From: Octopus sinensis
Taxonomy: Eukaryota
Assembly: GCF_006345805.1 (NCBI RefSeq)
Contig: NC_043020.1
Span: forward strand, 23,188,001 to 23,252,000
Direction: 5' to 3'
DNA: 64,000 nt
Part shown: positions 44-1,356 of the stretch, piece by piece
How the letters are laid out: every line of letters begins with the position of its first letter
How positions within the stretch are numbered: the first letter of the stretch is position 1
The notes under the pieces: generated by a model
Databases searched by the model: none
What the model saw: only the letters and a program-made list of their open reading frames with translations
What the model was told of the DNA's origin: nothing
Position numbers and translations under genes: made by a program

Positions 44-516
44 CACATATGTATACACATACGCGCGCGCATGTGTGTGTGTGTGTGTGCGCGCGTGCGC
101 GCGTGCAGGAATTCAGTTGTCATTGCGTGTTTAGATTTTCAATAATCCTTATAGATATCCAGGAAATTTACACAAATGTTTTATAGAACCTGAATCTCCG
201 TTTTATTTGTCGGTAGATAGGCAGAATCGTAAGAGCATCGAGAAATATAAAAATTAGGAATGAAAAATTAAAAAAAAGGAAAGAAACATTTGCAGTATTT
301 CTTCTGACTCTTTACGTTCTGAGTTCAAATACTGCTGGGTGTCAACTTTGCCTTTCATCCTTTCGGGATTAATAAAATAGAGTATTCTTTTCTACTCTAG
401 ACATTTTTGGGGAGAGGCCAGTCGATTAGATCGATTAGTTCGACCCCAGTACGGATGAAAGGCAAAGTCGACCTCGGCGGAATTTGAACTTAGAACGCAG
501 CGGCAGAAGAAATACC

Positions 517-1339
517 AATTTCTTTATTGCCCCTCAACAAAAATATTTAGGACTCCCCCCCCCTACATCCATGATTTCTGGGAGTTGTTCTATAAATTTT
601 TTGGTCAGTAGTATGAGGTTAAGCGTTTGACCAGTCTAATAGGTATTCTCTGTGACGGTAGCCTGCAGGAGGTTAATATTATCTTCCCTGTTTGCCAGGA
701 CTGCCGCCATCAAGCACATAGGGTTAACTCCGGGTGGAATTCTTGGTATTCTCACTTTTGATGTTCTCTTTCCCATGTAAATTGGGATTAATATTGTCTT
801 TCAACTCTAAAGATTTTATAGAATGTTTTTGTGCCGTTTCTGCTTTCTTGAACCTCACCACGATGGTTCCAAACTTCGTCCCTCTGGCTAGATATGTAAT
901 ATCCTGCCAGGTGGGTTTTAGACTATTTTCAATTTTTTGCTCACATATCTTATATATTTTACGAGCTTTTAAGCAGAATGTCTTAAAAATAATAATTTTC
1001 TTTTTTTCCTCCGTTAATTCTTCTGGTATTTCCACTTTTACTACTCCATCTCGTTCTGTTATCATATCTTTGTATTTTAGTAATTCTTTTTTGTCAGTTG
1101 ACAGCTATCGCGTTCCACTACCAGCTGCTGACGCAAAACTTTTCCTTTCTTCATTTCGGATAGTCTTTTCTTCTGTCTTTCTTTTGGTGTTCGTAACTTT
1201 TCCTCCACAGGTGAAAACCACAAATAGCCTTCGAAAGAAAACTATACAATTTTTTCAACAATAAGTCCAACAATAACCACAAGAGATATAACAATTAACA
1301 GAAACTTACGAACACACTCCAATAATAAATTTTCAATAA
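517..1339 (-). mobile_element. Internally deleted Tx1-clade LINE (5'UTR + ORF1 N-terminal part joined to 3' tail) inserted in SINE-A
   Basis: ORF 724-1065 (IIFKTFC...IENSLKPTWQDITYLARGTKFGTIVVRF) aligns by eye with ORF1 at 34641 (VVFKTFC...IEKCLSPIWKDIVYVARGRAYGTVDVRF). Ends GGGCAATAAAGAAAT. Flanked on the minus strand by GGTATTT(TGT)TCGTCTG (1340-1356) and GGTATTTCTTCTG (504-516). Confidence 0.8.
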
Positions 1340-1356
1340 CAGACGAACAAAATACC

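Follow-up and report, generated by a model that had tools for sequence, protein, structure and literature searches.

Several families of Tx1-group non-LTR retrotransposons prefer other repeats as insertion sites. The available excerpts of Kojima 2015 (PMC4494074) name Mariner, Harbinger and LTR elements, U2 genes and microsatellites as preferred targets of Tx1 families, regard a family as target-specific when >20% of its flanks are of one sequence type, and list no SINE among these targets. They also describe Xenopus Tx1L in Tx1D, Keno in U2, Kibi and Koshi in microsatellites, and crocodilian Tx1-Mar with SINEU-3, in which tandem SINEs sandwich a duplication and the preference covers 13-90% of copies, depending on the family.

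Octopus genomes carry tRNA-derived SINEs termed OK, OR1, and OR2 (Ohshima and Okada 1994, cited in PMC4758252, itself available as excerpts). In the excerpts of PMC13282606, 13 recently active L1-Tx1 families and a SINE share of ~12% of the genome are reported for O. vulgaris, with nothing on the target sites of those families. The partner LINEs and nesting of octopus SINEs are little described in such excerpts. We found no SINE-targeting Tx1 and no octopus SINE arrays in the literature, although Repbase or primary papers may hold them, and neither a SINE-head target nor a self-targeting SINE appears in the excerpts of PMC13282606, PMC8967140, PMC4758252, and PMC9004415.

Here, we analyze a 64,000-nt stretch of the Octopus sinensis genome (the window), in which a LINE-derived insert lies within a SINE that we call SINE-A. 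SINE-A and a second family, SINE-B, probably belong to the octopus SINEs already described. Since transposon-targeting Tx1 elements are described in the excerpts of Kojima 2015 (PMC4494074), this kind of system is already known. As with Tx1-Mar and SINEU-3 in those excerpts, a Tx1-group LINE and a partner SINE appear at a common site within a different repeat, a duplication is enclosed by tandem SINE copies, and the preference is partial. However, Tx1-Mar elements target Mariner, a DNA transposon, and their SINEU partners have snRNA heads and poly(A), whereas the octopus target is the SINE's own head and the 3' tail is shared. As for Tx1L, Keno, Kibi, and Koshi, the group is of the APE type, each family preferring a repeat, and relatives in the window lie in (TATC)n much as Kibi and Koshi lie in (TC)n/(TTC)n, a likeness in the kind of site.

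Structure of the locus

The features of the locus and of its relatives in the window are collected in Table 1. An initial annotation had proposed, for the minus strand, the order tailed SINE-A, motif, Tx1 5'UTR/ORF1, motif, and rest of SINE-A, and we found this order as written. The first motif copy, within the SINE-A head, reads GGTATTTCGTCCG. Neither ARAGORN nor Rfam gave a match within the window, so that the head of SINE-A is at most putatively tRNA-like. The tailed unit next to the head shares 82-89% identity with 11 further tailed units of the window.

Table 1. Coordinates of the 504-1356 locus and related features in the window
Feature	Position	Strand	Remarks
SINE-A host head with first target-motif copy (1538-1526)	1526..1585	-	tRNA-like A/B-box-like motifs by eye
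Tailed SINE-A unit: body and ~65-nt tail ending AAAGAAATA	1357..1525	-	2 extra letters after the tail
5' junction GGTATTTTGTTCGTCTG	1340..1356	-	17 nt
LINE 5'UTR	1198..1339	-	loose ends at 1198 in X1 and X4
Broken ORF1, two RRM-like domains	529..1198	-	homology to P0001; loose ends at 1198 and 529
16-nt tail GGGCAATAAAGAAATT, common to tailed SINE-A	517..532	-	loose ends at 529 and 532
3' target-motif copy GGTATTTCTTCTG	504..516	-	
Remainder of host SINE-A, untailed end	~395..503	-	internal deletion in body
SINE-A arrays of 184-bp units	5336..6125	+	
LINE c, 5'-truncated related LINE in (TATC)n	7069..8808	-	last bases resemble SINE-A tail
Remnant b, third ORF1 remnant	30520..31083	-	~350 nt downstream of cut SINE-B
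Left target duplication of LINE a	34136..34151	+	right copy 39530-39545, 14/16 equal
LINE a, related full-length LINE in SINE-B head	34152..39529	+	tblastn of ORF1 relatives against the window
SINE-A array with three tailed units, a single head, and a single untailed end	53115..53880	+	units 84-92% alike
SINE-A array	59592..60348	+	a pair of units 98% alike; after the last tail, SINE head at another position

Between the 5' junction and the 16-nt tail lie 807 nt of non-SINE sequence (1339-533), which upholds the earlier argument that tandem duplication cannot account for the insert. A comparison of this part with the window returned no second copy (the self match and one 48-nt match, E 0.04). 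The insert is not, as was also claimed, free of homology to SINEs, since its 3' 16 nt equal the SINE-A tail. The 3' junction is therefore indistinguishable from that of a tailed SINE, and a neighboring tailed SINE, reached by a deletion, could be the source of the 3' motif copy.

The 17 letters of the 5' junction may be read either as a 13-nt duplication with 4 extra letters relative to the 13-nt consensus (three, TGT, had been counted initially) or as a 10-nt duplication followed by the first 7 nt of the element itself. An independent copy from a public run (X3 record 24), in which the ATG side is intact, aligns from 1198 through the motif to 1356 and ends there. As judged from alignment coordinates, not letters, it has 7 extra letters and none missing across 1340-1356. 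Because this copy has the whole junction, a 10-nt duplication plus an element starting with TCGTCTG is favored over the 13-nt reading, and the ~13-nt duplication with inserted TGT that was first proposed may in fact be one of 10 bp. The motif thus occurs on both sides of the insert, with a duplication length of 10 or 13 nt and a 3' copy that is possibly the SINE's.

Single contigs in two of the four public runs span the ORF1/tail/motif junction at single-copy depth. The locus structure is therefore real, and we rejected an assembly artefact. One spanning contig shows 0 differences over 502-667, possibly coming from the window's own sample, and the other 5 over 501-702. Given the single-copy depth, we also rejected a mobile non-autonomous family of the deleted form. 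At position 567, X1 and X4 show the window's letter, whereas X2 (76% read) and X3 do not; the deleted copy may therefore be limited to some lineages, contigs being no proof of absence. The copy at 504-1356 is dead and bears no sign of function.

ORF1 and the family of the insert

A 126-residue frame of the insert is 77% identical to a 371-residue Octopus vulgaris protein (P0001), and we found 67 relatives of this frame at E<=0.001. Among the 11 ORF1 relatives looked up, 10 are Octopus entries. The homology carries on in a second frame (72% to P0001), ends at VLNIFVEG, and altogether covers three frames between ~1198 and 529, interrupted by a stop near 1107 and by frameshifts near 795, 636, and 560. 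The peptide at 724-1065 highlighted by the initial annotation is thus indeed ORF1, but only an internal piece of it.

Missing from the window ORF1 are approximately 42 codons at the start and all sequence from the CCHC knuckle onward. Other copies, represented in public contigs, have these N-terminal codons and extend beyond 529 into the knuckle. Loose ends at 1198 in X1 and X4 lead from 1339-1198 into the ATG and MPKS start of P0001/P0002. Since other copies continue past both 1198 and 529, 1339-1198 is the 5'UTR and the window copy has been internally deleted twice. GGGC (532-529) fits both the ORF1 side and the tail side of the second deletion.

A structural model of P0001 (pLDDT ~90 over residues 80-270) matches tandem-RRM structures at E 2e-4 to 1e-3 with low TM, and a CCHC knuckle follows the RRMs. 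The Atlas look-alikes are CCHC and ZCCHC3-RBD clusters, and zf-CCHC was detected in 4 of 22 relatives at E<0.1. The family therefore has the RRM-plus-CCHC layout of a Tx1 ORF1, the knuckle being deleted in the window copy and present in others. P0001 resembles the type I ORF1 in the excerpts of PMC5203782 in having two RRM-like folds and one CCHC knuckle, while Pfam gave no real match for P0001 or the three window peptides. We rejected the database name "EPM2A-interacting 1-like" as the function of P0001. Two Octopus gene models, P0005 and P0025, fuse ORF1 to host exons (LDL-receptor repeats and a coiled-coil protein, respectively) and are likely annotation joins.

A second homologue search with P0001 as the query returned P0001 alone, and blastx of 149 proteins revealed none that holds translated SINE or 5'UTR sequence. 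Relatives were found neither in viral and metagenome contigs, by protein and SINE pattern, nor in prokaryote genomes, by SINE pattern. The summed depth over the insert is 45-57 times the single-contig depth in all four runs, a rough figure of ~50 copies that counts sequences >=80% alike. Collectively, these data support the view that the insert derives from a multicopy L1/Tx1-group non-LTR retrotransposon, of which it represents the 5'UTR and ORF1.

Related LINEs in the window

LINE a comprises an ORF1 (~34540-35435) with 36-38% identity to the ORF1 of 529-1198, an ORF2 (35932-39303) with frameshifts, and a 3'UTR ending in GAAATA. Its ORF2 matches Exo_endo_phos (8.5e-14), RVT_1 (8e-4, on a fragment), and zf-RVT (1e-9), and its best match among solved structures is human L1 ORF2. 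The combination of APE, RT, and C-terminal zinc motif is accordingly documented for a distant relative, LINE a, and is putative for the insert's own family. No named Tx1 reference occurs among 38 ORF2 relatives, one of which is a "hypothetical protein" of Argonauta hians. ORF1 proteins of the RRM-plus-CCHC type occur in other clades too. We nevertheless consider the insert Tx1-like, because a related ORF1 heads LINE a with its Exo_endo_phos, RVT_1, and zf-RVT domains, and because an RRM-plus-CCHC ORF1 in an animal L1-group element fits Tx1, such animal type I ORF1s being called consistent with the Tx1 clade in the excerpts of Ivancevic 2016 (PMC5203782).

The segment that LINE a splits is uninterrupted in 9 of 11 SINE-B head matches and diverges in one. 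LINE a is separate evidence for a SINE-targeting lineage and represents a candidate second SINE-targeting family (SINE-B head, 16-bp duplication). Its 5'UTR is unrelated to that of the insert and its target is different; the 5'UTRs of the three ORF1 elements show no likeness beyond chance. Remnant b, for which the SINE-B is cut in its distal part, has lost its 3' side and ends in (TA)n, and is weak evidence for SINE targeting.

LINE c is 68-73% identical in DNA to the ORF2 end of LINE a. Its stretch 8808-8722, together with the TATC block, recurs at 8410-8324. The 5'-truncated related LINE ends at 7069-8808 (-) and 20120-20277 (+) lie in (TATC)n/(TATG)n and have similar tails; they make up a candidate microsatellite-targeting family.

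The SINE-A tail and LINE 3' ends

The SINE-A tail matches the LINE a 3'UTR over 27/30 nt, and no shuffle in 1,000 reached this score or that obtained against the last bases of LINE c. Two 5'UTR controls were at chance (887/1000 and 260/1000 shuffles reaching the score); single-letter shuffling of pyrimidine-rich sequence makes this a lenient control. LINE a ends in GAAATA, SINE-A tails in AAAGAAATA, and the insert in AAAGAAATT. Since the tail matches the 3' ends of LINE a and LINE c and the controls do not, we conclude that the SINE-A tail is LINE-type. The sharing, seen with LINE a and LINE c, supports a link between SINE-A and a LINE partner, for which the insert's own family is a candidate.

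The probable target site in SINE-A

There are 15 tail matches in the window, 2 of which are LINE-like ends in microsatellites (7070, 20277). The motif directly follows 10 of the 13 SINE-A-type tail ends. The other three comprise two solo full-length SINEs (29776, 27085), each at an unrelated site with its own duplication, and one tail at another head position (60180). At 60163-60230 (+), the SINE-A tail is followed by a SINE head from ~position 15 and not by the usual motif, reflecting either a second site or a longer duplication. The solo tailed SINE-A at 29775-30022 (-) has a 15/15-nt duplication starting with ATATTT, which resembles the motif start; this duplication at 30 kb and that of LINE a (14/16) are the clear ones.

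The array units are not independent, as the 10 motif-following tails fall in a few arrays and two units are 98% alike. The differences of 7-16% between most units are those expected of separate insertions or of old duplications. Both visible 5' flanks of the family are at the motif (2/2, among ~45-57 copies). In X1, on the most cautious assumption, element contigs reach on average at least 1345, past the border at 1339; this flank-depth test depends on the SINE share and is informative in X1 only, not in X2, X3, and X4. No loose end occurs near 1340-1357 among the 24 listed, which carries no weight since 208 others are unlisted.

Two similar untailed SINE-A-like dimers, each joined by a short ATC-rich spacer, follow (TTA)n at 15762-15960 (+) and 18150-18620 (-), and were probably moved by a different LINE. 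In addition, an ORF piece (RPDIILKDF..CLLVDMTVP) at 52687-53193 (-) adjoins the 53-kb SINE array; we take it to resemble the restriction-type endonuclease end of another LINE group.

Discussion

We propose that 504-1356, a dead copy with two internal deletions, probably stems from a Tx1-like LINE family of Octopus with a preference, though not an absolute one, for a site in the SINE-A head. The SINE-A-targeting Tx1 lineage put forward initially thus gains from the L1/Tx1-group 5'UTR/ORF1 and from a second copy starting at the motif (X3 record 24), and loses the two arguments corrected above.

An unlikely alternative is that these LINEs have a loose liking for purine-purine-TATTT-like or simple-repeat sites, that SINE-A is hit through its abundance, and that the arrays grew mainly by tandem duplication or unequal exchange. 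SINE-A and SINE-B indeed take up 14% of the window, the duplication of the solo SINE at 29775-30006 starts with ATATTT, another solo copy has landed in a TA repeat, (TATC)n/(TATG)n surrounds the ends of related LINEs (7069, 20277), and two array units are 98% alike. However, site and strand match exactly at the locus, for which the chance of a 5' end <=5 nt from a same-strand motif copy is ~0.0014 (a rough, post hoc figure for one case), and the second copy likewise begins at the motif. LINE a also lies in a SINE head, and the arrays consist of one head, one untailed end, and diverged middle units.

Two further readings concern single junctions. The second deletion could have started in ORF1, removed the LINE end, and stopped within the tail of a tailed SINE lying downstream, so that the locus would have one LINE junction, while the LINE may nonetheless have targeted the site. 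We consider this rather improbable: the 16-nt tail is indistinguishable from SINE tails, tailed units do stack at the motif site, and the X2 and X4 loose ends at 532 are SINE-tail-like, but one more insertion would be required and the ends of related LINEs are of this kind too. Moreover, the X1 loose end at 532 is T-rich, unlike a SINE tail, and possibly LINE 3'UTR (4 contigs, agreement 0.7; a hint only). At the other end, the LINE might carry SINE-A as its own 5' head, so that the upstream motif is inherited and not a target. At least TCGTCTG seems common to copies, and snRNA-headed Tx1 elements (some Tx1-Mar with U1/U2 heads) appear in the excerpts of Kojima 2015 (PMC4494074). A mere head, however, cannot explain why SINE-A resumes after the 3' end exactly where the head stopped, and only 28 of ~350 element-contig depth units in X1 reach 1357, which makes this reading very improbable.

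For a LINE family preferring the SINE-A head, the following course may be envisaged on top of what was observed directly, namely the parts of the locus and its two deletions, the ORF1 family, tens of related copies, and the tail common to SINE-A and related LINE 3' ends. The APE endonuclease of the LINE would nick at the 5' border of GGTATTT, and target-primed reverse transcription would start on RNA ending in AAUAAAGAAAU, with no poly(A), 10-13 nt of target being duplicated upon insertion. Later deletions at short shared sequences (the GGGC at 532-529 and, presumably, one at 1198) would have spared the 5'UTR, some of ORF1, and the final 16 nt. Tailed SINE-A, with its LINE-type tail, may use the same machinery and insert into other SINE-A copies, nesting in its own kind because its head holds the target. 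Head-less 184-bp units could then arise where the cDNA pairs with the homologous head upstream.

A broader model, whose chances we hold to be even, is that Octopus Tx1-like LINEs have split into families aiming at different SINE heads and that SINE-A took the tail of its LINE. The resulting self-inserting loop would build the 184-bp arrays by retrotransposition and offer both LINE and SINE a landing site that is safe and renewable and that may lend them a promoter upstream. If true, targeting of a partner SINE by its LINE would account for head-less SINE arrays, which would then be products of insertion, and SINE counts and ages would be biased. It would also add a new target class for Tx1 endonucleases, and families targeting SINE-A, SINE-B, and TATC repeats within one genome would provide a set for studying how the specificity of APE endonucleases changes.
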